Shown here: in pieces, positions 39,759-53,889 of the stretch | Numbering within the stretch: position 1 is the stretch's first letter | Layout of the letters: each line of letters starts with the position of its first letter | Made by a program: the position numbers and the translations under genes | Notes under the pieces: model-generated | What the model saw: only the letters and a program-made list of their open reading frames with translations | Told to the model about the DNA's origin: nothing | Database searches by the model: none | Origin: Spirochaetia bacterium | Lineage (GTDB): Bacteria > Spirochaetota > Spirochaetia > SZUA-6 > Bin103 | Direction: 5' to 3' | DNA: 64,000 bases | NCBI GenBank assembly: GCA_965198005.1 | Contig: CBDAOI010000002.1 | Location: 288,001 to 352,000 of the forward strand

Positions 39759-41054
39759 CTACCGGGCCAGCGCGGCGGCCGCGGCGTAGATCTCCGCGAA
39801 CAGCGCCTCCAGATCGTCCAGCGCTACGGTGGAGTACGCGACCCGCAGGTAGTCATCTCCCACCGAGATGGTGCCGATGCCGCGCCCGTGCAGCAACTCG
39901 AGGCGCAACGCCTCGGCCTTGCCTCCTACCACTCGCAGGGTGAGGAAGTACCCGGAGTTGAACGGCAGCGGTTGCAGCGACCCGTCCGGCGCCGCCCGGG
40001 CGGCGAGGAGCTCGCGCACCCGCCGGTAGCGGGCGGCGACCGCTTCCAGGTTGGCTGCCCGCTCGGCCTGGTAGGTGCCGGACCGCATGGAACGGAGAAT
40101 CAGGTTCTGGGCCAACGTGTTGGAACTGGAAACCGATGAGCGCACGGCTCCCATCACCTTCCGCTCCAGGGCCGCGAACTGCTCGTCCGTGACGCCGGGT
40201 GCCCCGAACGTCAGGAAGCCGACGCGAAATCCCCACACGTAGCTCTCCTTGGTCGCGCCGTCCACCTTGACCGCGAGGATCCGGCGATGCGCGTTGCTCA
40301 GCCGGGCGAACAGCGACTCCCGATAGCTCGCGGGGTCGTAGAACAACCCGAAGTACGCGTCGTCGCAGATCACGACCTGCCGGAGGCCGCGCCGAGCGTG
40401 GTGCAGCAACACCTCCAGCAGGCGCTCGACTTCCGCCTGAGCCGGGGTGTAGCCGGTGGGATTGTTGGGGAAGTTCAGCAGCAGCACCGCCTTGCCGCCG
40501 CCGGGCAGCCGCTCGAGCGCGGCGTCGAACGCCCCCACGTCGAGCTGCCGCGCAGCGTCGAAGAAGGGCACCGTCTCCAGCACCGCGCCCCGCCGCTCTT
40601 CCATTATGAGGCGGTAGTTGCCCCAGAACATGTCCGGCACCAGCACCCGGTCGCCGCGGTCCACCAGCAGATCGGCGGCCACGGCGATCCCGTGCGTCAG
40701 GCCGGCGGTCACCAGCGGCAGCGACACCGGGCCGGTGAGGCCGGGGTTCTTCTGTTTCATCTCCGCCAGCCAGCAGGTGCGCAACTCCGGAAGTCCCCCG
40801 GTCGGGGCGTAGGCGAAGATCTGGTCCGGCTCCAGCTCCGGCACCAGCCGCCGGATACTGTCCAGAAACAGCGGCGTCCGGCCGTCGGTGGCGATGCCCA
40901 CGGTAGCGTCGAACCGATGCGCGTGCTTGGCGGCCTCCGCGGTCTGCGCCACCACCCCGCGCGGGAAGTACAGGCGGCGCCCCAGGTCGGACAGCAGCGG
41001 CGCGATTTCAGTGTCGGCGAGGGTCTGGTTGAGCTGTGCGGCGAGTGGATTCAT
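39759..41054 (-). CDS. PLP-dependent aminotransferase class I/II
   Basis: NFPNNPTGYTP, DDAYFGL, DGATKE..WGFRVG. Confidence 0.9.
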   Translation of the reverse strand: MNPLAAQLNQTLADTEIAPLLSDLGRRLYFPRGVVAQTAEAAKHAHRFDATVGIATDGRTPLFLDSIRRLVPELEPDQIFAYAPTGGLPELRTCWLAEMKQKNPGLTGPVSLPLVTAGLTHGIAVAADLLVDRGDRVLVPDMFWGNYRLIMEERRGAVLETVPFFDAARQLDVGAFDAALERLPGGGKAVLLLNFPNNPTGYTPAQAEVERLLEVLLHHARRGLRQVVICDDAYFGLFYDPASYRESLFARLSNAHRRILAVKVDGATKESYVWGFRVGFLTFGAPGVTDEQFAALERKVMGAVRSSVSSSNTLAQNLILRSMRSGTYQAERAANLEAVAARYRRVRELLAARAAPDGSLQPLPFNSGYFLTLRVVGGKAEALRLELLHGRGIGTISVGDDYLRVAYSTVALDDLEALFAEIYAAAAALAR

Positions 41055-41098
41055 GGCGCGAGTCATCGCCCTACACTGTGCGCAGAGCGGCGCGGCCT

Positions 41099-41134
41099 TT
41101 GTCAACGCGGCTCCGGCAAGCTACATTTGCGTAA
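41099..41134 (+). promoter_or_regulatory. sigma70-type promoter of the activator, overlapped by a CTAC-N6-GTAA box
   Basis: TTGTCA(41099-41104)-17bp-TACATT(41122-41127); box CTACATTTGCGTAA at 41121-41134. Confidence 0.6.
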
Positions 41135-41139
41135 CCTGT

Positions 41140-42696
41140 ATGGCGTCTCCCCTGCCATCGGCCGACGTGCGGCGCGAGGTGAGCGAGCTGGCGATGCTGT
41201 TCGAGATCAGCCGCATTCTCGACTCCAGCCTCGATCTGCGCGACGTCGTGCATCCGATCCTCGAAACGCTCGGCCGCCACCTGGGCATCCGGCTGGGCGT
41301 GCTGAGCCTGGTAAACCGCGCCACCGAACGGATCTCGATCGAGGCCGCCTACGGTCTGTCGGAGAGCCAGCAGCGGCGCGGCCGGTACAAGATCGGCGAG
41401 GGCATCACCGGCGGCGTGGTGCAATCCGGCGCGCCCGCCATCGTACCGCGCATCGCGGACGAGCCCGGCATGGTGCACCGCACCCGCGCCGCCACCAGTC
41501 CGGAGCTGGCCGACCTCTCCTTCATCTGCGTGCCGATCAAGTCGGGCAACACCGTGATCGGCTCGCTGAGCACCGACAAGCTGTTCCCGGCGCACGTACC
41601 GTTCGACGAGGACGTACGGTTGCTTTCCATTATTGCGTCGATGATCTCGCAGGCGGTAAAGCTGCGTCAGTCGGCGCAGGAGGAGCGCCGGCGGCTGCTC
41701 GAGGAGAACGACCGGTTGCAGGAGCAGTTGAAGAACCGGTTTCGGCCGAAGAATCTGATCGGCAGCTCCGAGGCGATGAACAGCGCGTTCCGGCTCGTGG
41801 GACAGGTGTCACGGAGCGATGCCACGGTGCTGATCCGGGGCGAGACCGGCACCGGCAAGGATCTGGTGGCGCAGGCGATCCACTACAACAGCGCGCGCAC
41901 GGCGAAACCGTTCATCAAGGTGAACTGCGCCGCGCTGCCCGAGTCCGTGATCGAGAGCGAGCTGTTCGGCCATGAGCGCGGGGCGTTCACCGGCGCGATC
42001 GCCACCCGCAAGGGTCGGTTCGAGCTGGCCCACGGGGGAACGCTGTTCCTGGATGAGATCGGGGACCTGACCGCGGCGACCCAGGTCAGGCTGCTGCGGG
42101 TGCTGCAGGAGCGCGAGTTCGAGCGGGTCGGCGGTACCGCCACGCTGCGCAGTGACGTGCGCGTGCTCGCCGCCACCAACCGCAACCTGGAAGAGCTGAT
42201 CGAGCGCGGCGAGTTTCGCGCCGATCTGTATTACCGGCTGAACGTGTTTCCGATTCACATCCCGCCGCTGCGCGAGCGCAAGACCGACCTGCTGCTGCTC
42301 GCAGATCACTTCGTCGCGCGCTACGGGGCCGAGAATCACAAGCACGTCAAGCGGATCACCACGCCCGCGATCGACATGCTGATGAGCTACCACTGGCCCG
42401 GCAACGTGCGCGAGCTGGAGAACTGCATCGAGCGTGCCGTCCTGCTGAGCAACGACGAGGTGATCCACGGCCACCACCTGCCGCCCACGCTGCAGACCGC
42501 CGAGGCCAGCGGCACCACTCCGCGCGGCAGCCTGCGCGGCACCGTCGACGCCATCGAACGCGAGCTGATTCAGGACGCCCTGAAGTGGGGCCGGGGCAAC
42601 CTGGCGCGCGCCGCCCGCTCGCTCGAGATCAGCGAACGGATCATGGGACTGCGCGTACGCAAGTATCGGATCGATCCCGACACCTACAAGCGCTGA
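41140..42696 (+). CDS. sigma54-dependent enhancer-binding protein, GAF-AAA+-HTH (NifA family, AnfA/VnfA-like HTH)
   Basis: GAF (GEGITG, SFICVPI), GETGTGK, intact GAFTGA, WPGNVRELEN; HTH GNLARAARSLEISERIMGLRVRKY. Confidence 0.92.
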   Translation: MASPLPSADVRREVSELAMLFEISRILDSSLDLRDVVHPILETLGRHLGIRLGVLSLVNRATERISIEAAYGLSESQQRRGRYKIGEGITGGVVQSGAPAIVPRIADEPGMVHRTRAATSPELADLSFICVPIKSGNTVIGSLSTDKLFPAHVPFDEDVRLLSIIASMISQAVKLRQSAQEERRRLLEENDRLQEQLKNRFRPKNLIGSSEAMNSAFRLVGQVSRSDATVLIRGETGTGKDLVAQAIHYNSARTAKPFIKVNCAALPESVIESELFGHERGAFTGAIATRKGRFELAHGGTLFLDEIGDLTAATQVRLLRVLQEREFERVGGTATLRSDVRVLAATNRNLEELIERGEFRADLYYRLNVFPIHIPPLRERKTDLLLLADHFVARYGAENHKHVKRITTPAIDMLMSYHWPGNVRELENCIERAVLLSNDEVIHGHHLPPTLQTAEASGTTPRGSLRGTVDAIERELIQDALKWGRGNLARAARSLEISERIMGLRVRKYRIDPDTYKR

Positions 42697-42830: not shown

Positions 42831-42847
42831 TTGGCACGCATCTTGCT
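42831..42847 (+). promoter_or_regulatory. sigma54 -24/-12 promoter of amtB-glnK
   Basis: TTGGCACGCATCTTGCT matches TGGCAC-N5-TTGC; RBS AAGGAGAGG before amtB. Confidence 0.9.
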
Positions 42848-42889: not shown

Positions 42890-44227
42890 ATGCGAAGATT
42901 TCTCATTATCGCTGCGGCGCTGCTGGTATTCGGCGCCGTGCATGGATTCGCGGACGCCGATTCCAACGCCGTGGCCATCGATACGGTATGGACGATCATG
43001 GCCGCGGTGCTGGTATTTCTGATGCAGGCCGGCTTCGCGATGCTGGAGACCGGATTCACGCGCGCCAAGAACGCGACCAACATCATGATGAAGAATCTGC
43101 TGGACTTCTCGATCGGGACGCTCGCGTTCTGGGCGATCGGTTTCGGGATCATGTTCGGAGCCGACGCCGCGGGCCTGCTCGGGACCGACAAGTTCTTCCT
43201 GGGCGGGGCCGTGGTGGACGAGGCGTTCTCCGACTTCACGTTCTGGATCTTCCAGGTGATGTTCGCCGCCACTGCCGCCACCATCGTCTCGGGAGCGGTA
43301 GCGGAACGTACGCAGTTCAAGGCGTATCTGGTCTACTCGGTATTCGTCAGCGCGCTCATCTACCCGGTGGTCGGCCACTGGATCTGGGGCGGCGGCTGGC
43401 TCGGTTCGCTGGGCATGATCGACTTCGCCGGATCCACCGTAGTCCACTCCGTGGGCGGCTGGGCCGGTCTGGCGGGCGCGATCGTCCTGGGTGCGCGCGA
43501 AGGCAAGTACGTCCGCACCGGCAACGGCAGCAGCCAGGGCAGGCCGGTGGTAAACGCGATCCAGGGGCACAACATGCCGCTGGCCGCGCTCGGCGTGTTT
43601 CTCCTGTGGTTCGGGTGGTTCGGGTTCAACGCCGGCAGCACGGTGGCGGGCACCGACCTGTCGATCGCGGCAATCGCCGTAACCACCAACCTGGCGGCCG
43701 CGGCCGGCGTGGTGGGCGCGCTGATGATGGCCTGGATGATCTCCGGCAAGCCCGACCCGACGTTCGCGCTCAACGGCGCCATTGGCGGTCTGGTGGCGAT
43801 TACCGCGGGCTGCGCCAACCTGTCACCGGGCAGTGCGGTGGTGGTCGGCTTTCTCGGCGGCGTGCTGGTGGTGTTGTCGGTGCAATTCATCGACCGCGTG
43901 CTCCACGTCGACGATCCCGTGGGAGCGGTCTCCGCGCACGGCGTGGTCGGCGCCTGGGGCACGATTGCGGTGGGTCTGTTCGCGCAGGAGCAGTACGGCG
44001 GCACCAACGGTCTGTTCTTCGGCGGCGGCTTCGGCCAGCTCGGGATTCAGATCGTAGGCGTCCTGGCGGTATTCGCGTGGACCTTCGCTACCGCACTGAT
44101 TCTGTTCAAGTTGATCAAGGCCACCGTCGGTCTGCGCGTGACCCGCGAGGGGGAACTGCGTGGACTCGACATCGGCGAGCACGGCACGGAGGCGTACACC
44201 GACTTTCAGGTGTACACTACCCGTTAA
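42890..44227 (+). CDS. amtB: Ammonium transporter
   Basis: [57 protein letters not shown]. Confidence 0.97.
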
Positions 44228-44255: not shown

Positions 44256-44597
44256 ATGAAACTGATTATCGCCTACGTTCAGCCGCACAAGCTGAACGAC
44301 GTCAAGCAGGAGCTGTTCAAGGAGCAGGTGGGCAAGATGTCGGTCACCAATGCCTTGGGCTGCGGGCAGCAGATGGGCTACACCGAAACCTACCGGGGAG
44401 TCCAGATCGAGGTCAACCTGTTGAAGAAGGTTCGCCTCGAGATTGCGGTCAACGACGAATTCCTGGAACGTACGATCGATGCGATCGTGCGCGGCGCCCG
44501 CACCGGCGAGATCGGCGACGGCAAAATCTTCGTGACGGAGCTGAGCCAGTGTATCCGCATTCGCTCGGGCGAAGTGGGTGCCGTAGCAATTGGATAG
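44256..44597 (+). CDS. glnK: PII nitrogen regulatory protein (GlnK-type, Tyr51 replaced by Ile)
   Basis: [42 protein letters not shown]. Confidence 0.95.
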
Positions 44598-44778: not shown

Positions 44779-47700
44779 TCAATCCGATCCTGCCACCCGG
44801 CAATAGGCGGCGTGCACCCGGGTCGTGACCTCCGCGACCCGTTGCTCGAACGCGGGCACGGTCGCGCCGGTACCCAGCAGGTGGCGCGCCAGGGTGGTCA
44901 GCGCCGTCCGGGAGGTGGGCAGCGCGTGTACCTGACGATCCTCCAGCACCTGCAGGAAATGTTCCAGCCGCCGCAGGAACAGGTAGTCGTCGCGCAGGTG
45001 CCCGGCGGTTGCGGTGTCGAGCACCGCGGCCCGCTGCAGACGCCCCAGAGCCTCCAGGGTGTTGCCGCACTGCAGGTGCGGAATCCGCGGCAGGTGCACC
45101 AGTTGCAACCCCTGCACCAGGAATTCGATCTCACGTAGACCACCGATCCCGGACTTCACGTCACGCCCCTGGCCGAGCCGGGCCTTATGGGCGAGGGCCA
45201 GCGCCCGCATCCGGCGGATGGAGCCGAACACCCGCGCGGCGCGGCTCGCGGGGTCGTCTCCGAAGCGCGCGAAGGCAGCCTGCGTCTGCTCCAGCAGCGC
45301 GTTGCCGAGGGCACGGTTGCCACCCACCGGGCGCATCCTCAGCAATGCCTGCACCTCCCAGTCGTTGGCCGGTCCGCCGTAGTAGGCGACCAGTGCGCGC
45401 AACGAATGGGCCAGCTCGCCGGAGCTGCCGTAGGGGCGCAGCCGCCAGTCCACCCGATACGCGGCGCTCTCCTCGGGATGGGAGGAGAGCACCTCACGCA
45501 AGCCGCGGGCGAGCGCGGAGACGGCCTGACTCAACTCCGCACCGGCCGCGGCGCCCAGGCCCCGGTCGTCGTACAGCGCGACCAGATCGATGTCCGAGCT
45601 GTAGTTGAGCTCCTCCGCCCCCAGCTTGCCCAGCGCCAGAATGCAGGTACGCTCGCCCAGCGCCGGCTGCTCCGGCTGCCGCGTCAGGGCGGTGAGCGCG
45701 GCGTCGACGAACGCCTCCGCGACGGTGGAGAGATCGGCCATGACGTCGGTCACCGGCGCCTCGAGGCAGAAGTCGCGGATGGCGATGCGCAGAATCTCGC
45801 GCCGGCGCAGGGCGCGCAGCCGCCGCAGCCAGGCAGTGCGGTCCGGCGCGCCGCCGGCCGCGGCCTCCAGCTCCAGCGCCACGTCCTGCAGCCGGCGGCG
45901 GCCGTGCAGCCGCTCCGGCTCCTCGGTAACCCAGTCGAACAGCTCGGGGCCGCGCACCAGGGCGTCGGCCAGAAACTGGCTGGTGGCGAAGATTCGCAGC
46001 AGCAGCTCCAGCCGCGTGGGTTGGCGCAACAAGGTCCGGAAGTGGCGCCCGGGATCGTCCAGAGCCGCGGCGAACCGTTCCCAGTTGTTGAGCGCGCGAT
46101 CCGGATCCGGTTGCAGGGCCAGGGTGTCGCCCGCCAGCACCGCCAGCCGCGCGAACTCCGTGCGATCCGGGGCACGGCGCGCCAGCCGGATGACGTTGCC
46201 CGCCGCCCGCTCCGGCTGCGCGAACCCGAGCCGGCGCAGAACGGTGGCCGGGGCGGCATCCGCGGCGGCGCGGGCGGTGTCCGCTGGCGGCAGGCTCAGC
46301 ACCAGGTCGGCGAGACCGGTGATCGTGTCGGAGCCGAGCGAGCCGCGCCCGAGGCGGGTGTCGATGAAGCGCCGCACCGCCGCGCGGCGGGTTTCCAGCT
46401 CCAGGCGGAGCTGCTGCGCCGGGGCCAGACCGTCCGCCTCGCGGTAGCCCATGCGGCGCGCCAGATGGCCGTACTCGGGAGCGTGCGCCGGCGGCAGGTA
46501 CAGGTCACGGGCCGAGCCGCGCAGCATGCGCAGGGCGTTGATCAGCAGGCGGAAAAACCCGTACGCGCCCTGGATCTGCTCCGCCTCCTCGGCCGCCAGC
46601 AGCCCGGCCTGCGCCAGCCCATCCAGCGCCTGATGGACGCTGGAGCTGCGCAGTTCCCGGTTGGTCTCGCCATAGCGCACCTGCAGCATCTGGACCGCGT
46701 ACTCCACGTCCACCAGCGTGCCGGGGCTGAACTTGGCGTTGAGCCTGGTGGCGGCGTCGTACTCGGCCACCTGCCGGCGGCGCATCCGGTGCACCTGTTC
46801 CAGGGCGACCGCGCCGGCCGCGTACACGAATTGGTCGCGCAGCCGCTCCAGCCGCGCGCCCAGCGCGGGGTCGCCGGCCACGGCGCGCAGCCGCAGCAGC
46901 GCCAGCCGCTCGTACGCCAGCGCGGCGCCGCCGGGGCCGTAGTAACGGGTGAAGCTTTCCAGACTTACGGCGCGGGGTCCGGCGGCGCCGTACGGGCGCA
47001 GGCGCAGGTCCACCTCGAAGATGCCGGCCCGGCGGGCGCTGATGCGCGCGGTGGTGGCGCGCACCAGTTGCTCGTAGTACTCGGCGTTGCCGACCCGGCG
47101 CGGGCCGGTGGTGCGGCCCTGGTCGCTGTACACGAACATCAGCTCGACGTCGGAGGCGTAGCCGAGCGCGCGTCCCCCCATCTTGCCCAGCCCCATCACG
47201 GCCAGCCGCGTATCGATGCCGCCGACCGTTTGCGGTACACCGAACTGCGGCCGCAGGGCCGCCGCCGCCAGCTCCAGCGCACCGGCCAGCACGCAGTCGG
47301 CAAGCTCGGTCAGGCGGCCGGCGAGCGTCCGCACGCCCCAACCCGGCCCGAGAATGTGCTCCAGATCGATCAGAAACGCCTCGCGATCCTTGAACCGGTT
47401 CAGCGTCGCCACCTTCTCGTCGGCCGTGGCCGCCGCGTCCACCGCCGCCCGCAGGCGCGCCGCGACCGTGGCCGGATCGGTGAACCGGTGGGTCGCCTGC
47501 GGTTCCAGCAGCGGCAGCAGGGTCTCGAACTGGCTGCGGACGAAGTCCTCCCACAGGTAGTCGCTGCTGCCCAGCAGCACCGCCAGCTCGCGCATGATGC
47601 GCGGGTCGGCCAGCAGATCCGGCAGCCGGCCCGCCTCCGGCAACTCGAGCATCCGCTCGGTGAGCTGTTCGAAGCGCATCAAGGCGGCGTACGGGTCGGG

Positions 47701-48630
47701 GGCGACGCCGACGAAGTAGGCGAACTGCTTGGTGAGCAGCACCGAGAGCTTGATCTGGTTCAGCAGCGTAGCGTCGCGGATCGGCGCGCCGGAGCGATCG
47801 ACCACGTCCACGGTATCCTCGACGCGGCCGGCGACGGTGCGGATCCGCAGCCGTTGAATCGCGACCCCGCGCAGCGCGAGCGCGGCGCTGAAGCTGTAGA
47901 GGAACAGCGGCGTGTCCTGGGAGACGATGCGCATGCGGGTCACCGCCCCGCCGGCGGTCACCGCCGCGGGGTTGCCGATCGTGATTTCAACCGGGTACAG
48001 AGTCGGCGGCGCCGACCAGGTGCGGCGAATCCGCTCCGCCACCAGTTCGCTGACCCGCCGGCGGGCCGCGTCCCGGGCCCCGCGCTCCAGATCGGAAGCG
48101 ACCGCCAGCAGCCGTTGCTCCAGTTGTTGCCGCCACTCGGCCGTGCTCAGCACCCGCGCCTCCGGCGTCTCGCGCCGCCCGTGGAAACAGTCGATCAGCA
48201 TGCGGCGCCCTGCGCCCGGCCGCGGCCCCACGACACGGCGCCGCGCACCCGGACGCCGGCGCGCGCGCATCCCGCTCGGTGCGGTCTCGGTGGCGGGCGC
48301 CGGCCCGTAGGTGTGGGCGGTCCCGCGGTCGATGGCGAACCCGGCCGCCGCCAGCACCCCCGTAATCAGCGAGAAGGCGCCGGGGTAGTCGTAGCCGACA
48401 ATCGTGCAACCGAGCGTCCCGGCTTCGCCGCCGGTCTCGGCGACGGCAACCGCCAGCGGCCGGCGCTCATGCAGCCGGCTCAGCCCGCGGATGTGTCCGG
48501 CCACCTCCGGCAGCGAAAACTCGTCGAAGTAATCGTCGCCGAGACGTGCCAGATGCCGATCGATGAAGTACTCGTCGACTCCGGCCAACTCGTTGCGGAG
48601 TTGCTCCCTGTCTCGCGCCGACGCAGTCAC
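44779..48630 (-). CDS. glnE: GlnE-like glutamine synthetase adenylyltransferase/adenylyl-removing enzyme with N-terminal GlnD-like ACT domains
   Basis: Two NTase motifs GKMGGRALGYASDVE and GKLGAEELNYSSDID, each followed by VDxRLRPYG; N-terminal DYPGAFSLITGVL and DTPLFLYSFS ACT-like motifs; start approximate. Confidence 0.88.
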   Translation of the reverse strand: MTASARDREQLRNELAGVDEYFIDRHLARLGDDYFDEFSLPEVAGHIRGLSRLHERRPLAVAVAETGGEAGTLGCTIVGYDYPGAFSLITGVLAAAGFAIDRGTAHTYGPAPATETAPSGMRARRRPGARRRVVGPRPGAGRRMLIDCFHGRRETPEARVLSTAEWRQQLEQRLLAVASDLERGARDAARRRVSELVAERIRRTWSAPPTLYPVEITIGNPAAVTAGGAVTRMRIVSQDTPLFLYSFSAALALRGVAIQRLRIRTVAGRVEDTVDVVDRSGAPIRDATLLNQIKLSVLLTKQFAYFVGVAPDPYAALMRFEQLTERMLELPEAGRLPDLLADPRIMRELAVLLGSSDYLWEDFVRSQFETLLPLLEPQATHRFTDPATVAARLRAAVDAAATADEKVATLNRFKDREAFLIDLEHILGPGWGVRTLAGRLTELADCVLAGALELAAAALRPQFGVPQTVGGIDTRLAVMGLGKMGGRALGYASDVELMFVYSDQGRTTGPRRVGNAEYYEQLVRATTARISARRAGIFEVDLRLRPYGAAGPRAVSLESFTRYYGPGGAALAYERLALLRLRAVAGDPALGARLERLRDQFVYAAGAVALEQVHRMRRRQVAEYDAATRLNAKFSPGTLVDVEYAVQMLQVRYGETNRELRSSSVHQALDGLAQAGLLAAEEAEQIQGAYGFFRLLINALRMLRGSARDLYLPPAHAPEYGHLARRMGYREADGLAPAQQLRLELETRRAAVRRFIDTRLGRGSLGSDTITGLADLVLSLPPADTARAAADAAPATVLRRLGFAQPERAAGNVIRLARRAPDRTEFARLAVLAGDTLALQPDPDRALNNWERFAAALDDPGRHFRTLLRQPTRLELLLRIFATSQFLADALVRGPELFDWVTEEPERLHGRRRLQDVALELEAAAGGAPDRTAWLRRLRALRRREILRIAIRDFCLEAPVTDVMADLSTVAEAFVDAALTALTRQPEQPALGERTCILALGKLGAEELNYSSDIDLVALYDDRGLGAAAGAELSQAVSALARGLREVLSSHPEESAAYRVDWRLRPYGSSGELAHSLRALVAYYGGPANDWEVQALLRMRPVGGNRALGNALLEQTQAAFARFGDDPASRAARVFGSIRRMRALALAHKARLGQGRDVKSGIGGLREIEFLVQGLQLVHLPRIPHLQCGNTLEALGRLQRAAVLDTATAGHLRDDYLFLRRLEHFLQVLEDRQVHALPTSRTALTTLARHLLGTGATVPAFEQRVAEVTTRVHAAYCRVAGSD

Positions 48631-48683
48631 CGGTCCCGATGCTACCACCACATCGGGGCCGGTGTATCGCCAGGGCGCGCGCG

Positions 48684-50105
48684 TCAGATGTCGTAGTACA
48701 TCGCGAATTCCCACGGATGCGGCCGCAGGTCCAACGCGGTTACCTCGTTCTCCATCTTGTAATCGATCCAGGTCTCCAGCACGTCCTCGGTGAACACGTC
48801 GCCCTTGAGCAGGAACTCGTGGTCGTCGCGCAGCGCCTCGAGCGCCTCGCGCAGCGAGCCGGGCGTGGTGTTGACCTTGGCCAACTCCTCGGGCGGCAGG
48901 TCGTAGAGGTCGCGGTCGAGTGGGTCGCCGGGGTGGATCTTGTTGGTGATGCCGTCGATCGCGGCCATCAGCATCGCCGCGAACCCGAGATAGGGGTTGG
49001 AGGAGGCATCCGGGCAGCGGAACTCGATGCGCTTCGCCTTGGGGGAGGTGGAGTACATGGGCAGCCGTATCGCCGCGCTGCGGTTGCGGCGCGAGTAGGC
49101 CAGATTCACCGGCGCCTCGAAGCCCGGCACCAGCCGCTTGAAGCTGTTGGTGGTCGGGTTGGTGAAGGCGATGATCGCCGCCGCGTGGGCCAGCAGGCCG
49201 CCGATGGCGTACAACGCCATCTCCGACATCCCGGCGTAGCCGTCGCCGGCGAACAGGTTGCTGCCGTCCTTCCACAGCGAGATGTGGGTGTGCATGCCGC
49301 TGCCGTTGTCCCCGAACAACGGCTTGGGCATGAAGGTGGCGGTCTTGTTGTAGCGCCGGGCGGTGTTCTTGACCACGTACTTGTACTTGAGCATGTTGTC
49401 GGCCATGGTCACCAGGGGCGCGAACCGCATGTCGATCTCACCCTGGCCGGCGGTGGCCACCTCGTGGTGCTGCGCCTCGATCAGGACCCCGATGCTCTCC
49501 AGCGTCAGCATCATCTCGCTGCGCAGATCCTGCAGGCTGTCGGTGGGCGGTACCGGGAAGTAGCCCTCCTTGTAGCGCGGCTTGTAGCCGAGGTTGGGGT
49601 TCTCGTCGCGGCCCGAGTTCCAGCGCCCCTCTTCCGAGTCGATGTGGTAGTAGCCTTCGTGCTCGTTCTGGTCGAAGCGCACGTCGTCGAACACGAAGAA
49701 CTCCGCCTCCGGCCCGTAGTAGGCCACGTCCGCCAAGCCCGACGAGCGCAGGTAGCCCTCCGCCTTGCGCGCGATGTTGCGCGGATCGCGGGTATAGTCC
49801 TCGCCGGTCACCGGATCGGAGATGTTGCAGATCAGGACGATCGTCTTGCGCGCCAGAAACGGATCGATGAAGCCGGTCTCGGGCACCGGCTTGACCAGCA
49901 TGTCCGATTCGTTGATCGACTGCCAGCCGCGGATGCTGGAGCCGTCGAAGCCCAGGCCGGCGGCGAAGTCGTCCTCCGACAGCTCGCGCGCCGGGATCGA
50001 GAAGTGCTGCCACAAGCCGGGAAAGTCCATGAAGCGCAGGTCAACGACCTCCACTCCCTCGTCGGCGATCAGCTTGAGCACGTCGCCAGGGGTTTTCAGT
50101 GTCAC
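48684..50105 (-). CDS. glnA: Glutamine synthetase type I-beta
   Basis: [36 protein letters not shown], adenylylation loop [19 protein letters not shown] before GTG. Confidence 0.98.
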
Positions 50106-50146: not shown

Positions 50147-50163
50147 AGCAAGAACCGTGCCAT
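50147..50163 (-). promoter_or_regulatory. sigma54 -24/-12 promoter of glnA-glnE
   Basis: Minus strand ATGGCACGGTTCTTGCT matches TGGCAC-N5-TTGC. Confidence 0.9.
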
Positions 50164-50798: not shown

Positions 50799-51886
50799 AT
50801 GTTCCATGTAGATAGATCCGCGAAACGCATGATCAAGCTTCAGACGAGACGCTTTTCCGATCTCGGTCTACGGGAGCGTGTCGACCTTCAGGAGTGGCTC
50901 GAGGGTACGCCCGAGGCACTCGGCGAAGATCTCTTGATCATCCAAAAGGAATTCGACGGCTTTGCCGACACGCGTGAACGACTCGACCTGTTGGCGCTCG
51001 ACAAAGCCGGGAAGCTCGTGTCATCGAACAAACTCGACGACACCGGCCGCGATGTGGTTTGGCAAGCGATCAAATACGCCGCCTACTGCTCCAACCTGAA
51101 TAAGACCGAGATCGTCCGGTACCTTGACCGCAAGCACGTCGGCGAGAATGCCGAGACAAAGATCAGAATTCCTCGATGAGGATACACTCGACGAGATCGT
51201 TCTCAACGCGAGCAACGATCAACGAATAATGCTCATCGCCGGACTTTCGCAAGGAAGCGACGGCGAACGTACAGTGCTTCCGTGTTGTCCCCTACTGTTT
51301 CTGTGAAGAGATTCTCGTTGACCTTCGGCAGATTATCCCCACCCCGGAAGCCGAAGACTTCATGATCAGCATGGCGACCAAGGGGGCCGAGGAAAAGTCT
51401 ACGGAAGACGCTCAACGCCGAAGCCACAAGCTACGCTTGGCGTTCTGGGAGCAGGCGTTGGAGGCACTGCGTGCACGCGGCCTCCCGAAATATCAGAACA
51501 TAAGCCCCTCGAGGGAACACTGGCTGAACTGCGGCACCGGCGTGTCTGGTTGTTACTACGCTCTGATTGTTCTGAAGCAAGAAGCACGCGTCGAATTGAC
51601 TCTGCAACGGGCCAACACGAAAGAAAACAAGTGGCTATTCGATAAGCTGGAAGAAAAACAGGAAGCGCTTGAGAGCGACTTTGGGGAAGCCCTGGAGTGG
51701 AAACGCATGCCAGACAAGAAGTCGAGCAAGATCCAACTAGCGCGGCTATGCGACGGCTACGATAGGGACGAATGGCCCGCGATTATTGAGTGGTTGGGAG
51801 ATCGCGTCAGTCGGCTCGCAAAGACATTCGATGAACATCTTGAACGCTTGAAGCGGGAGTTGAAGGCGACTACGGGGGCTTCGTAG
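50799..51886 (+). pseudogene. Frameshifted PD-(D/E)XK (NucS-like) + DUF4268 protein
   Basis: ERxDLQEW..P..LGEDLLIIQKEF..ERLDLLALDK, a damaged ENK motif (LVSSNK), several frame jumps at 51120-51360; the C-terminal DUF4268-like part (FWEQ..SPSREHWL..ARVEL..LEW) is intact. Confidence 0.75.
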
Positions 51887-52511
51887 GGTGCCGCGGAAAC
51901 CAACGGCGCAGCGTGTTCTTGAATTCATTGAAGGCCGGATCCTGGCAGCGGTCAAAGTCAACGGCTTTCGCGAGTTCCGAGAACATGCGAGCGGATCGTT
52001 GGACACGTCCGCGCCGCAGCGCTTCCAACATCGCCTTCTTCGGTCGTGTCGGTTTCGCGTCACTCGACGGCCATAATCCCTCGATTGCCAGCCATCGTCG
52101 CAATTCACGGTAGCGCCCGCCCCAACCCAATACCTGCGGGACTGCTGGGGAGTCGCTCCACACCCACAATTCAAGTTCGGGTTCGATTACGATGACGCTC
52201 GCACGGGTCCCCCATCCGTTGCGTGCGAGCCGTTGCTCCAGATCCCGCTGGATGTGTGCTCTGGGAAGCGTGCTCCCACAACCATGATGATCGAATATGA
52301 CCATCACGTATCGATACTTCCCGAGATACGGCCTCAGATACTCCACCGCGTCACTGCGGCAACCGCTGTCTCGGTTCACGTGTCGCTCAATATCAGATTC
52401 TATCTCGCTGATACCAAGATCCTGCGCACGTGACAGCAATCCGTCAACGGCGTTCGCCAACTCCAAGTCGGCGGCCAGTATGAAAAGATCCTTGGGGCTC
52501 GTGTTGATCAT
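51870..52511 (-). CDS. Mad4-like / TOPRIM-like partner of an ABC-type ATPase
   Basis: KDLFILAAD, H..RDSGC, VIFDHHG, VIEPELELWVW, C.DPAF; ATGA-coupled to the ATPase. Confidence 0.65.
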   Translation of the reverse strand: MINTSPKDLFILAADLELANAVDGLLSRAQDLGISEIESDIERHVNRDSGCRSDAVEYLRPYLGKYRYVMVIFDHHGCGSTLPRAHIQRDLEQRLARNGWGTRASVIVIEPELELWVWSDSPAVPQVLGWGGRYRELRRWLAIEGLWPSSDAKPTRPKKAMLEALRRGRVQRSARMFSELAKAVDFDRCQDPAFNEFKNTLRRWFPRHPTKPP

Positions 52512-53776
52512 CCAATGACGCCGGAGGCGAACAGCACTTCCATGTTCGGTGAGCCCTGCCAATCTCTAAGTCGCGGATGCGAATTGCCCGCTACGATGTC
52601 GGTTGCTCCGTCGGAATCCTTTGCGAAACAAAGAGCCTCTTCCAAATCCGCCATCCTGAGCACAACCGGGGAGTGGGTAGCAAGGAGAACCTGCGACTCG
52701 TAGACCGAAGTGAGTGACTGGAACACGCAATCTACCGCCAGTGGATGGATTCCATTCTCGGGTTCTTCCAAAATGTATATCTCATCCGATCCGGGCAAAT
52801 AGGCCGGGAGCGTCAGTGCCAACAATCTGAGCGTGCCGTCGGACGCCATCCACGACGGAACCTCCACGCCCGACCTGTAACGAAGCCGCAGATACGCGTG
52901 GCGGTCATCTTCGCGCTCCACGACGCCGACGTAGTCCAGTTCGGAGAGCGTCGTTTGCACGTGTGACAACCACTGCCGGTAGGACTCCGGATGCTCTCTT
53001 TCGAGCTTCTTGATCACCCATGGGAGGTTTGATCCATCCTGTGCGATGCCGTCTTCACGCTTTGCCGGTGGACTCGCTTCGCGCATCCGAAGGCTGTCAA
53101 GAAAGAACGACTTTATCGAGCTTCCCAGTAGCTTCTTCACGTAGGTCGAGACTGGGAAACTCGTTGGTGATTCAGGGAGATTCCCGAGAGCCGAGCGGCG
53201 ATGCCCGAACGCGATACTCGTCGCCCATCCCTTCCCCGACTTGGAGGACGTCTCGAGGTTGAAATTGTCCTTGGCCTGACTCGACTTGCTCAATATGGTG
53301 CGCCATCCCCGCCGGTTTCCGCCGACCAGTATGGACGATGGAGGTTGCATTGGTTCGGGAAAGAGTTCGCGCTGGGCTGGCTCTTGTGATTCTCGCACAG
53401 GCGTCAGTATACCACGTTCCGAGTCGATTCTTATGTCACCACCGGTCTCTGTTATCGCTACTTCGTAGCGGAAAACGCGATAGTCTCGTTCCGGCGGCAA
53501 CAGTTCCCGGAGGTCTTCCGGGATGTCGAACTCTACCGCGAGCTCGAAGCCCAGACGGTCCCTCGGCCGCCCCCATACCAAATCCTGAAAATTGCTTGTG
53601 CGGCTGTCGACGGCTTTCTCAAGCCCTGTGGACACCAAGTCCCCGAGGAAGGCAATGACATCAAACAGCGTGCTCTTGCCGCTTGCGTTGGGGCCTACGA
53701 GGACGTGGAAACGATCGAGCTCGACATCCACGTACCGCAAACAGCGGTAGTTGAGGGCCTGGAGGCGCCGGATCAT
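52508..53776 (-). CDS. AAA_21/ABC-type ATPase (Mad3-like)
   Basis: NYRCL, Walker A GPNASGKST, signature SDGTLR, Walker B EEPENGIHP, ATHSP. Confidence 0.85.
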   Translation of the reverse strand: MIRRLQALNYRCLRYVDVELDRFHVLVGPNASGKSTLFDVIAFLGDLVSTGLEKAVDSRTSNFQDLVWGRPRDRLGFELAVEFDIPEDLRELLPPERDYRVFRYEVAITETGGDIRIDSERGILTPVRESQEPAQRELFPEPMQPPSSILVGGNRRGWRTILSKSSQAKDNFNLETSSKSGKGWATSIAFGHRRSALGNLPESPTSFPVSTYVKKLLGSSIKSFFLDSLRMREASPPAKREDGIAQDGSNLPWVIKKLEREHPESYRQWLSHVQTTLSELDYVGVVEREDDRHAYLRLRYRSGVEVPSWMASDGTLRLLALTLPAYLPGSDEIYILEEPENGIHPLAVDCVFQSLTSVYESQVLLATHSPVVLRMADLEEALCFAKDSDGATDIVAGNSHPRLRDWQGSPNMEVLFASGVIG

Positions 53777-53889
53777 GGTACAGCCTCAACACTACCACAG
53801 ATGCGGAGCGTCAAGAATCGAGGAGCGGCGCCAGCGGAATTGCCGGAGACTCACGAGCACACGAGCACGGCACGCGGTATACTGACGGC

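Follow-up and report, generated by a model that had tools for sequence, protein, structure and literature searches.

The window, by which we mean the whole stretch of 64,000 nucleotides analysed from a Spirochaetia bacterium, carries a glnE-like gene that lies between glnA on one side and a convergent amtB-PII pair on the other (Table 1). The glnA product, which shares 56% identity with its E. coli counterpart, is the sole GS found in the genome; its DLYDLPPEE aligns with NLYDLPPEE of the E. coli protein, so that the adenylylation target (Tyr398, Met1 counted) is kept, as had been claimed in a preliminary description of this DNA. Since glnA ends only 33–54 nt upstream of glnE, the two genes probably form one operon. 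The genome's PII protein has an Ile (codon 44406–44408) where that of E. coli has Tyr51. If translation starts at another GTG, at 48651, the glnE-like protein is 1290 aa long, as in the protein database (P0002); the start of the homologues aligns with 48630.

Table 1. Features of the glnE-like gene and its surroundings (nucleotide positions are those of the window; residues are those of the 1283-aa protein)
Feature	Position	Strand	Residues	Remarks
amtB	42890..44227	+		exact sigma-54 consensus ahead at 42832–42846
PII gene, glnK-like	44256..44597	+		genome's only PII; downstream of amtB, convergent with glnE
glnE-like gene (P0001)	44779..48630	-	1283 aa	GTG start 48630, TGA stop 44779–44781
GlnD-type N-terminal module	47731..48630	-	1–300	GlnD models, AF2 model, ACT-fold matches, profile match
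Helical linker of N-terminal module			about 5–51	AF2 model, GlnD models
ACT1			about 59–153	disordered Arg-rich loop at 108–143
ACT2			about 215–277	connecting helices between ACT1 and ACT2
Module 1, assigned to AT lineage	46348..47733	-	300–761	trees, AU test, residue columns
Module 1 catalytic motif GKMGGRALGYASDVEL	47140–47187	-	482–497	G490, D494, E496 (DxE)
Module 1 motif FEVDLRLRPYGAAG			538–551	
Module 1 motif GTLVDVEYAVQ			637–647	
Module 2, AR type	44788..46143	-	830–1281	1V4A match E 2e-44, phmmer, tree
Module 2 catalytic motif GKLGAEELNYSSDIDL	45583–45630	-	1001–1016	N1009, D1013, D1015
Module 2 motif YRVDWRLRPYGSSG			1058–1071	
Module 2 motif GGLREIEFLVQ			1163–1173	
glnA (GSI)	48684..50105	-		adenylylation Tyr kept, codon 48903–48905
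Sigma-54 promoter consensus, exact (TGGCAC-N5-TTGC)	50148..50162	-		upstream of glnA

Pfam assigned to the 1283-aa protein two GlnE stretches (PF03710, E 9e-95) and two GlnD_UR_UTase stretches (PF08335, E 5e-37), and a search of the genome returned the same two of each for this gene. The NCBIfam GlnE equivalog cut-offs were missed (NF008292, 432.6 vs 487 bits; NF010707, 430.2 vs 625; NF010706, 371.9 vs 724), and the closest relatives of the protein share 61–78% identity with it. E. coli GlnE/ATase (946 aa; 1V4A is its N-terminal adenylyl-removing (AR) half and 3K7D its C-terminal adenylyltransferase (AT) half) likewise has two GlnE NTase modules, each with a GlnD_UR_UTase helical domain, and the catalytic G-x-G, D-x-[DE], D and RLRPxG are common to both modules of both proteins. 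All NTase motifs attributed to the protein in the preliminary description are present at the residues and coordinates checked, and the E. coli AR and AT motifs quoted there were confirmed in alignments to 1V4A and 3K7D. We interpret the domain order as ACT-ACT-AT-AR rather than AR-AT, a reading that the sequence analyses below support with caveats.

The only NCBIfam models that match the N-terminus are those of GlnD. NF003467 aligns residues 6–107 with its positions 675–776 of 940 (E 8e-17), and TIGR01693 aligns residues 6–293 with positions 601–841 of 850 (E 3.6e-14); the score of the protein against the latter, 52 bits vs a cut-off of 519.4, comes from the linker and ACT region only. Moreover, a profile of the N-terminal module (22 sequences) matches E. 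coli GlnD at 651–745 and 792–872, colinear with both ACT domains. Searched by phmmer as a single sequence against five GlnD proteins, the N-terminus gave no match up to E 10, and the relation to GlnD is therefore seen at profile level only. The Pfam ACT model PF01842 has no match in the 1283-aa protein at E up to 1 and is precomputed for 4 of 120 among the homologues listed, while PF01842 and PF24931 match GlnE proteins of the mid form described below. The AF2 model of the N-terminal 330 aa (pLDDT 88.2, pTM 0.87) has the secondary structure of two beta-alpha-beta-beta-alpha(-beta) units (pLDDT 88), and matches best, among PDB entries, the regulatory ACT region of aspartate kinase from Synechocystis (3L76_B, model residues 67–312, 162 residues aligned, Z 10.9), followed by the regulatory domains of threonine dehydratase (Z 7.7) and by CASTOR1/2 (Z 6.4–7.3). 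Hence the N-terminal ~300 aa, previously proposed to be the linker and the two ACT domains of GlnD, match GlnD models over this region and are predicted to fold as a tandem ACT.

Judged by its sequence, the second NTase module is clearly of AR type, in agreement with the resemblance to the E. coli AR domain noted earlier. It is about 30% identical to 1V4A, scores 158 bits in phmmer against the E. coli AR half vs 91 against the AT half, and groups with canonical N-terminal (AR) modules in a maximum-likelihood tree of 58 modules (LG+C20+F+G4). It has N, DxD, E and Q aligned with E. coli N169, D173/D175, E381 and Q385; N and DxD are found in 171/171 second modules, and E and Q in 168/171. The columns of E. 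coli G689, G692, D701 and R756 are invariant in all 171, and that of D752 in 170. Counter to the AR assignment, module 2 has the AT-type Arg at the column of E. coli K300/R828. We also modelled residues 300–1283 (pLDDT 84.9, pTM 0.81) and compared the model with both E. coli halves by Foldseek and VIA-align. Both 1V4A (Z 38.3, rmsd 2.9 Å, model residues 538–982) and 3K7D (Z 35.3) superposed on module 2, and this structural test of module identity was uninformative for module 1.

The first module was assigned to the AT lineage on the basis of the tree. In the 58-module tree, the split between AR and AT has a support of 96/98 and module 1 lies on the canonical C-terminal (AT) side; the opposite grouping of the two halves was not recovered. 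The canonical references in the trees come only from Pseudomonadota, Thermodesulfobacteriota and Spirochaetota, without Actinobacteria or Alphaproteobacteria; in a search for diverse references, the best 80 of 587 stretches were nearly all from Gammaproteobacteria, with a few from Betaproteobacteria and Desulfobacterales. AU tests, for which the constrained IQ-TREE searches were run under LG+F+G4 and not under the mixture model, gave p 0.984 for module 1 as AT and module 2 as AR, p 7e-49 for the order colinear with E. coli and p 0.016 for reversed roles, the last being more weakly rejected than the colinear order. When the tree was rooted on the GlnD NTase region, canonical AT and ACT-linked modules formed a clade (SH-aLRT 98). 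Relations within the AT side of the 58-module tree are weakly supported (66/22), and since the AT-side groups are the tree's long branches, their grouping could be due to long-branch attraction. The swapped order put forward in the preliminary description thus fits the module tree and the AU tests; counted against it is NCBIfam PRK14109, which aligns residues 300–987 colinearly to model positions 44–714.

The resemblance of module 1 to the E. coli AT domain, also claimed earlier, stands in the tree and the AU tests and is not supported by raw similarity. By phmmer, module 1 scores 108 bits against E. coli AT vs 103 against AR, which does not separate the halves. HMMs built from canonical sequences only gave module 1 of this gene 191.5 bits for AR vs 165.6 for AT and ranked AR over AT in 203/218 ACT-linked modules. 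Used as a classifier of module 1, they contradicted the tree, and we count them as evidence against the AT reading; the likely reason for their preference is that AR-type modules are more conserved and form a basal grade in the GlnD-rooted tree. We confirm the DxE described in place of DxD at the first site (D494 and E496): it occurs in 218/218 ACT-linked modules and in no canonical AT or AR module examined. In the same 218 modules, the columns of E. coli G689, G692, D701, D752 and R756 are invariant, the second acidic residue being E, and the column of G697 is Gly, which we count in favour of the AT lineage. The HMM ranking, the near tie in phmmer, the long branches and the private DxE would all suit an arrangement in which the ACT-linked module removes AMP and the C-terminal module adds it, or in which module 1 is a third paralogue with a function of its own. 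We regard this as very unlikely, because module 2, unlike module 1, keeps the residues specific to AR in the columns of N169, E381 and Q385, because reversed roles fare poorly in the AU test and in the outgroup-rooted tree, and because the ACT-linked module holds the C-terminal (AT) position in the mid forms.

Comparison with relatives indicates that the unit conserved in evolution is a cassette, namely a GlnD-type tandem ACT sensor placed directly before a DxE module of apparent AT lineage. An AR module stands behind the cassette (long form, as here), before it (mid form, colinear with E. coli), or there is none. The ACT-linked modules of long and mid forms make up one clade (support 100/100). 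Among 280 stored proteins, the order is ACT-AT-AR in 183 and AR-ACT-AT in 10, and about 20 complete ACT-AT proteins measure 725–813 aa. The design is widespread: labels of the homologues among the matches listed include Kiritimatiellae, Lentisphaerota, Verrucomicrobiota, Spirochaetales, Deltaproteobacteria/Desulfatiglandales/Syntrophobacteria and Firestonebacteria. A literature search found no paper describing an ACT-sensor GlnE with swapped catalytic halves. The mid-form proteins (for example P0212 and P0241; loci L042–L052, same phylum) share with the protein studied here the ACT-ACT-AT(DxE) cassette and the AR-type residues of its partner; their AR module is N-terminal, and the gene in the window is a circular permutation of the mid form. 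glnA lies within the fetched flank at 2/6 long-form and 3/12 mid-form loci, therefore its adjacency is not a family trait.

We then considered GlnD and PII. A PF08335 search for GlnD in the window's genome (90% complete) matched only the glnE-like gene. Among 151 genomes sampled from the phylum (Spirochaetota), full-length GlnD was found in none of 6 long-form genomes, in 3 of 12 mid-form genomes and in 7 of 8 with a canonical-size GlnE. A PII with Tyr51 is present in 7/7 GlnD-positive genomes examined vs 1/8 GlnD-negative ones, all of these genomes being relatives and not independent samples. As an ACT-linked GlnE and GlnD occur together in three of the twelve mid-form genomes, the ACT pair is no mere substitute for GlnD. 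The presence of GlnD's sensor module and the convergence of the gene with amtB-glnK might suggest an enzyme whose target is not GS, for example one acting on PII in the manner of GlnD. This is extremely unlikely: both modules fall within the GlnE family, far from the GlnD NTase region (branch length 2.8), Pfam finds no HD domain, the only PII lacks Tyr51, and the gene directly follows a glnA whose product keeps the target Tyr.

Textbook accounts of the regulatory cascade of GS adenylylation derive almost entirely from work on Proteobacteria. Unlike E. coli GlnE, in which AR and AT follow each other across a linker, the protein described here would have AT before AR, with a ~300-aa GlnD-type ACT pair ahead of AT and DxE within it; the E. 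coli enzyme relies on GlnD and on a Tyr51 PII, neither of which was found in the window's genome. The linker and tandem ACT of GlnD are homologous to the N-terminal module, and its NTase and GlnD_UR_UTase regions are distantly related; GlnD (NTase-HD-ACT-ACT) differs in that its ACT pair is C-terminal, whereas here the pair is N-terminal, there is no HD domain and the NTases are of GlnE type. On these grounds the gene probably encodes a bifunctional GS adenylyltransferase/adenylyl-removing enzyme of order ACT-ACT-AT-AR, in which glutamine would directly gate the adenylylation of GS, independently of GlnD and PII-UMP. Architecture, fold, lineage, conserved catalytic residues, target Tyr and the missing GlnD and Tyr51 rest on the results above; what each module does, that glutamine is what the ACT pair binds and any residual role of PII are inferred. 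At high glutamine, the ACT pair would bind it and turn on the neighbouring AT module, which would adenylylate the conserved Tyr of the adjacent GlnA and turn GS down; at low glutamine, the AR module would take AMP off by phosphorolysis. With an ACT-gated AT and an AR on one protein, GS could thus be controlled without GlnD and without PII uridylylation.

ACT domains are diverse in ligand. The pair may instead sense a different amino acid, 2-oxoglutarate or a nucleotide, or serve mainly in oligomerisation or in docking on the GS dodecamer, with the architecture as described. The nearest ACT folds, which bind Thr/Lys (aspartate kinase), Ile/Val (threonine dehydratase) or Arg (CASTOR), and a relation to GlnD that escapes phmmer speak for such a role. 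We nevertheless find it unlikely, since only GlnD models of NCBIfam match the N-terminus and the profile is colinear with both GlnD ACT domains. ACT domains are required for the glutamine response of GlnD, according to PMC11190351 and PMC3173338, citing Zhang 2010, and the former also attributes the glutamine activation of an algal alpha-amylase, Chlamydomonas AMA2, to a GlnD-like ACT module. Moreover, according to a bioRxiv report (10.64898/2026.09.02.748916), the glutamine-responsive site of canonical GlnE has been narrowed no further than the central plus AT part, the half that bears the ACT module here. AMA2 and plant ACR11, as described in PMC11190351 and PMC3173338, have a GlnD-like ACT attached to or beside a metabolic enzyme, as here, with a different host enzyme and kingdom.

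If glutamine is indeed the ligand, a wider reading, which we hold tentatively and at somewhat less than even chances, is that the three-protein cascade of GlnD, PII-UMP and GlnE may have collapsed into one polypeptide where GlnD and a Tyr51 PII were not found. The portable ACT-ACT-AT(DxE) would then be a self-contained, glutamine-gated off switch of GS, combined with AR as the on switch in no fewer than three arrangements (before it, behind it, or with AR as a separate or absent gene), and the permuted form in the window would control nitrogen assimilation as a natural one-component system, independent of PII. The sensor of GlnD on GlnE's own AT half, together with GlnD and Tyr51 PII not being found, suggests that the link between glutamine and GS activity is simpler and direct. 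ACT-linked GlnE would thus be a clean system for studying where and how GlnE senses glutamine, and its natural permutations would reveal which inter-domain contacts are required for reciprocal AT/AR control. Annotation is also concerned: the ACT-linked GlnE proteins carry the plain name 'glutamate-ammonia-ligase adenylyltransferase' despite scoring below the equivalog cut-offs.

The glnE-like gene encodes an open frame whose product carries two GlnE nucleotidyltransferase (NTase) domains and two GlnD_UR_UTase domains in Pfam. The start of homologues is level with the GTG at 48630; an upstream GTG at 48651 gives a 1290-aa product, to which the database protein P0002 is 100% identical. The glnE-like start lies 33-54 nt past the glnA stop (48684), and the gene is convergent with amtB-glnK. 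Three NCBIfam GlnE equivalog models match the protein strongly, each under its cut-off (432.6 vs 487, 430.2 vs 625 and 371.9 vs 724 bits).

Coordinates of the glnE-like gene and of features around it
Feature	Position	Strand	Remark
PII gene (glnK-like, after amtB)	44256-44597	+	single copy in the genome
PII codon at the Tyr51 position	44406-44408		Ile
glnE-like gene	48630 (GTG) to 44779-44781 (TGA)	-	open frame, 1283 aa
Arg-rich loop of the glnE-like product	48202-48309		residues 108-143
GAF-sigma-54 AAA+-HTH activator	40888-42696	+	no receiver domain; immediately upstream of amtB
Sigma-54 consensus TGGCAC-N5-TTGC, exact	42832-42846	+	just upstream of amtB
Sigma-54 consensus TGGCAC-N5-TTGC, exact	50148-50162	-	just upstream of glnA
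Low-G+C region	about 50800-53800		G+C falls from about 0.65-0.73 to 0.55-0.60
DUF4268 protein	51362-51886		low-G+C region
230-aa ORF, unassigned	51870-52562		low-G+C region
AAA_21/AAA_15 ATPase	52508-53776		low-G+C region

The preliminary description had likened the N-terminal ~300 residues to the C-terminus of GlnD and read them as a pair of ACT domains, and both profile searches and structure prediction bear this out. Several GlnD models of NCBIfam match residues 1-300, among them NF003467 (residues 6-107 on model positions 675-776 of 940, E 8e-17) and TIGR01693 (residues 6-293 on positions 601-841 of 850, E 3.6e-14). A 22-sequence profile of the N-terminal module aligned colinearly with E. 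coli GlnD, at 651-745 and 792-872 of 890 (E 5e-13 in a five-protein database); the N-terminus as a single sequence gave no match in the same five GlnD proteins. The AlphaFold2 model of residues 1-330, computed from the same 22-row alignment (pLDDT 88.2, pTM 0.87), has a helical lead-in followed by two beta-alpha-beta-beta-alpha units. Among 48,161 PDB representatives, the closest to it was 3L76_B, an aspartate kinase of Synechocystis, through its ACT regulatory region (Z 10.9, rmsd 4.8 A over 162 residues, spanning model residues 67-312). The regulatory domains of threonine dehydratase (Z 7.7), CASTOR2 (Z 7.3), CASTOR1 (Z 6.4) and ACT-like domains from plants (Z 6.2 and 5.9) followed well behind. 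Foldseek ranked highest the large glutamate dehydrogenase that bears ACT domains (E 2e-4) and regulatory subunits of aspartate kinase. Within the first ACT unit, the model has a disordered Arg-rich loop between strands (pLDDT about 50-61), which varies in length among homologues and precedes a conserved stretch, RR-x-I-[IV]-D-x-F-x-G.

The two NTase halves had been proposed to stand in the order adenylyltransferase (AT) then adenylyl-removing (AR), the reverse of canonical GlnE. For the second half, the AR likeness is borne out: it gives 158 bits against the E. coli AR half and 91 against the AT half, residues 880-1242 match the E. coli AR domain (1V4A) at E 2e-44 in a PDB sequence search, and 1V4A is the best structural match on this half of the model of residues 300-1283 (pLDDT 84.9, pTM 0.81), with Z 38.3 and rmsd 2.9 A over 417 aligned residues. 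The AT likeness of the first half is supported with caveats. Residues 462-698 match the AT domain (3K7D) in the PDB sequence search and the trees place this half on the AT side, but it scores 108 bits against the E. coli AT half and 103 against the AR half, and HMMs built from the AR and AT halves of 14 canonical proteins give it 191.5 bits for AR and 165.6 for AT. With these HMMs, the AR model beats the AT model in 203 of 218 ACT-linked modules. In structural comparison 3K7D was likewise placed on the second half (Z 35.3, rmsd 4.7 A). Judged by raw sequence similarity, the second module is thus assigned clearly and the first is left without assignment; the matches to the predicted model are consistent for the second and uninformative on the first.

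Phylogeny of the modules, excised by an HMM trained on both halves, argues for the AT-AR order. A quick tree (LG+G4) held 98 modules. Of the 57 proteins compiled, 51 contributed; two near-duplicates, one partial protein and three proteins with interrupted modules were left out, as were the decayed second modules of the four short forms. The tree split AR-type from AT-type modules (SH-aLRT 91) and united the ACT-linked modules of the long forms (ACT-ACT-AT-AR, as in the window) with those of the mid forms (AR-ACT-ACT-AT), with support 100. A more careful tree of 58 modules (LG+C20+F+G4, PMSF), taken from 29 proteins picked for speed and spread, gave the split support 96/98, with canonical N-terminal, mid-form N-terminal and long-form second modules on the AR side and canonical C-terminal and ACT-linked modules on the AT side, the latter forming a clade of their own (100/100). 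AU tests on constrained searches (LG+F+G4) gave the best likelihood to the ACT-linked module on the AT side with the second module on the AR side (p 0.984); the colinear order was rejected (lnL difference 185, p 7e-49), and grouping the ACT-linked module with canonical AR was worse by 34 lnL units (p 0.016). Rooting a quick tree on GlnD, with the NTase region of five proteins as a long-branched outgroup, recovered canonical AT and ACT-linked modules as a clade (98) and left the AR-type groups as an unresolved basal grade. Such a grade would account for the good scores of all modules on AR models, and hence for the HMM preference of the first half. The AT-side groups are long branches, so some long-branch attraction is possible in these trees.

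Signature columns were counted in 218 ACT-linked, 171 long-form second and 9 mid-form N-terminal modules. ACT-linked modules have Gly at the N169/G697 column (E. coli numbering) in 218/218 and Arg at the A915 column in 215/218. Long-form second and mid-form N-terminal modules have Asn at the former column (171/171 and 9/9) and Glu with Gln at the E381 and Q385 columns (168/171 and 9/9). At the acidic pair (E. coli D173/D175 or D701/D703), both of these sets read D-x-D throughout (171/171 and 9/9), and the D-x-E noted earlier at the first site of the window protein recurs in all 218 ACT-linked modules; by these counts it marks the whole family rather than this protein alone. At the K300/R828 column, the second module has the AT-type Arg. 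The columns of G689, G692, D701, D752 and R756 are invariant across all three sets with one exception, and therefore neither module resembles a dead copy.

The arrangement extends beyond this genome. Searching the full protein library with the N-terminal 330 residues returned 543 proteins at E <= 0.001; 280 stored proteins were sorted with Pfam and HMMs from the same families, a partly circular procedure, into ACT-AT-AR as in the window gene (183), AR-ACT-ACT-AT (10), ACT-AT alone (54) and ACT-only or AR-ACT pieces (33). About 20 of 51 plain ACT-AT proteins, P0145, P0163, P0226, P0199, P0239 and P0190 among them, are 725-813 aa long; their AT-lineage module is complete, and no more than 27 residues follow it. 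They look like genuine stand-alone enzymes lacking an AR half rather than fragments. Of 151 genomes sampled from the phylum, 34 had GlnE above cut-off: 6 with long forms (window gene counted), 12 with AR-ACT-ACT-AT forms, 8 with canonical-size forms, 4 with short forms whose second module is decayed and 4 with fragments. One mid-form gene (L066, G119:C18) lies in two frames, of 846 aa (AR-ACT-ACT and the AT start) and 413 aa (the AT remainder), which is either a genuine split or the product of a frameshift or sequencing error. Canonical-size GlnE at loci L054, L059 and L060 (genomes G021, G047 and G005) has an N-terminal module without some conserved catalytic residues, and the 902-920-aa proteins at L061-L064 (G086, G103, G076 and G146) pair a good AR-type first module with a decayed second (56-61 bits); both groups may be one-activity derivatives.

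The nitrogen genes around glnE bear on its input. The genome yielded a single GS, the neighbouring GlnA. It shares 56% identity with its E. coli counterpart and, as the preliminary description had it, keeps the adenylylation Tyr, which aligns with that of E. coli. In the 4.9-Mb, 90%-complete assembly, PF08335 and PF03710 match the glnE-like gene only, and no GlnD was found. Within the phylum sample, near full-length TIGR01693 matches occur in 7/8 canonical-size, 3/12 mid-form and 0/6 long-form genomes. Gapless alignment of the window PII with E. coli GlnB puts Ile at the position of Tyr51, the uridylylation site according to PMC3612183. We surveyed PII genes in 16 of 26 classified genomes (7 with GlnD, 9 without); in these related genomes, whose counts are descriptive only, Tyr51 was present in 7/7 with GlnD and in 1/8 without GlnD but having PII, and the ninth GlnD-negative genome yielded no PII. 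In this set, genomes without GlnD tend to lack Tyr51 as well, so gaps in the assemblies are unlikely to account for the missing GlnD.

The ACT pair directly adjoins the AT-lineage module. In the simplest reading, glutamine would bind the ACT pair and switch on GS adenylylation, which the AR module would reverse, so that GS could be controlled with no need for GlnD or PII-UMP. As reported elsewhere, the glutamine response of GlnD requires its ACT domains (PMC11190351, PMC3173338), an algal amylase is glutamine-activated through an ACT domain (PMC11190351), E. coli and Herbaspirillum GlnE have a glutamine-responsive site in the central plus AT part, and PII regulation of GlnE differs widely among bacteria (both from the 2026 preprint 10.64898/2026.09.02.748916). 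The full-text literature, with subscription journals and supplements outside its scope, gave no bacterial description of a GlnE or GS adenylyltransferase with ACT domains; its matches were one plant paper, the papers cited here and unrelated ones. The ACT-linked form of GlnE is real, occurs widely and is suggestive of a mechanism, but it elaborates a known enzyme and is not a new system.

The amtB and glnA sites are the only exact sigma-54 consensus matches in the window, and the GAF-sigma-54 activator could be the nitrogen regulator here, replacing NtrBC. The low-G+C region, with a possible defence-like ATPase pair, may be an acquired island.
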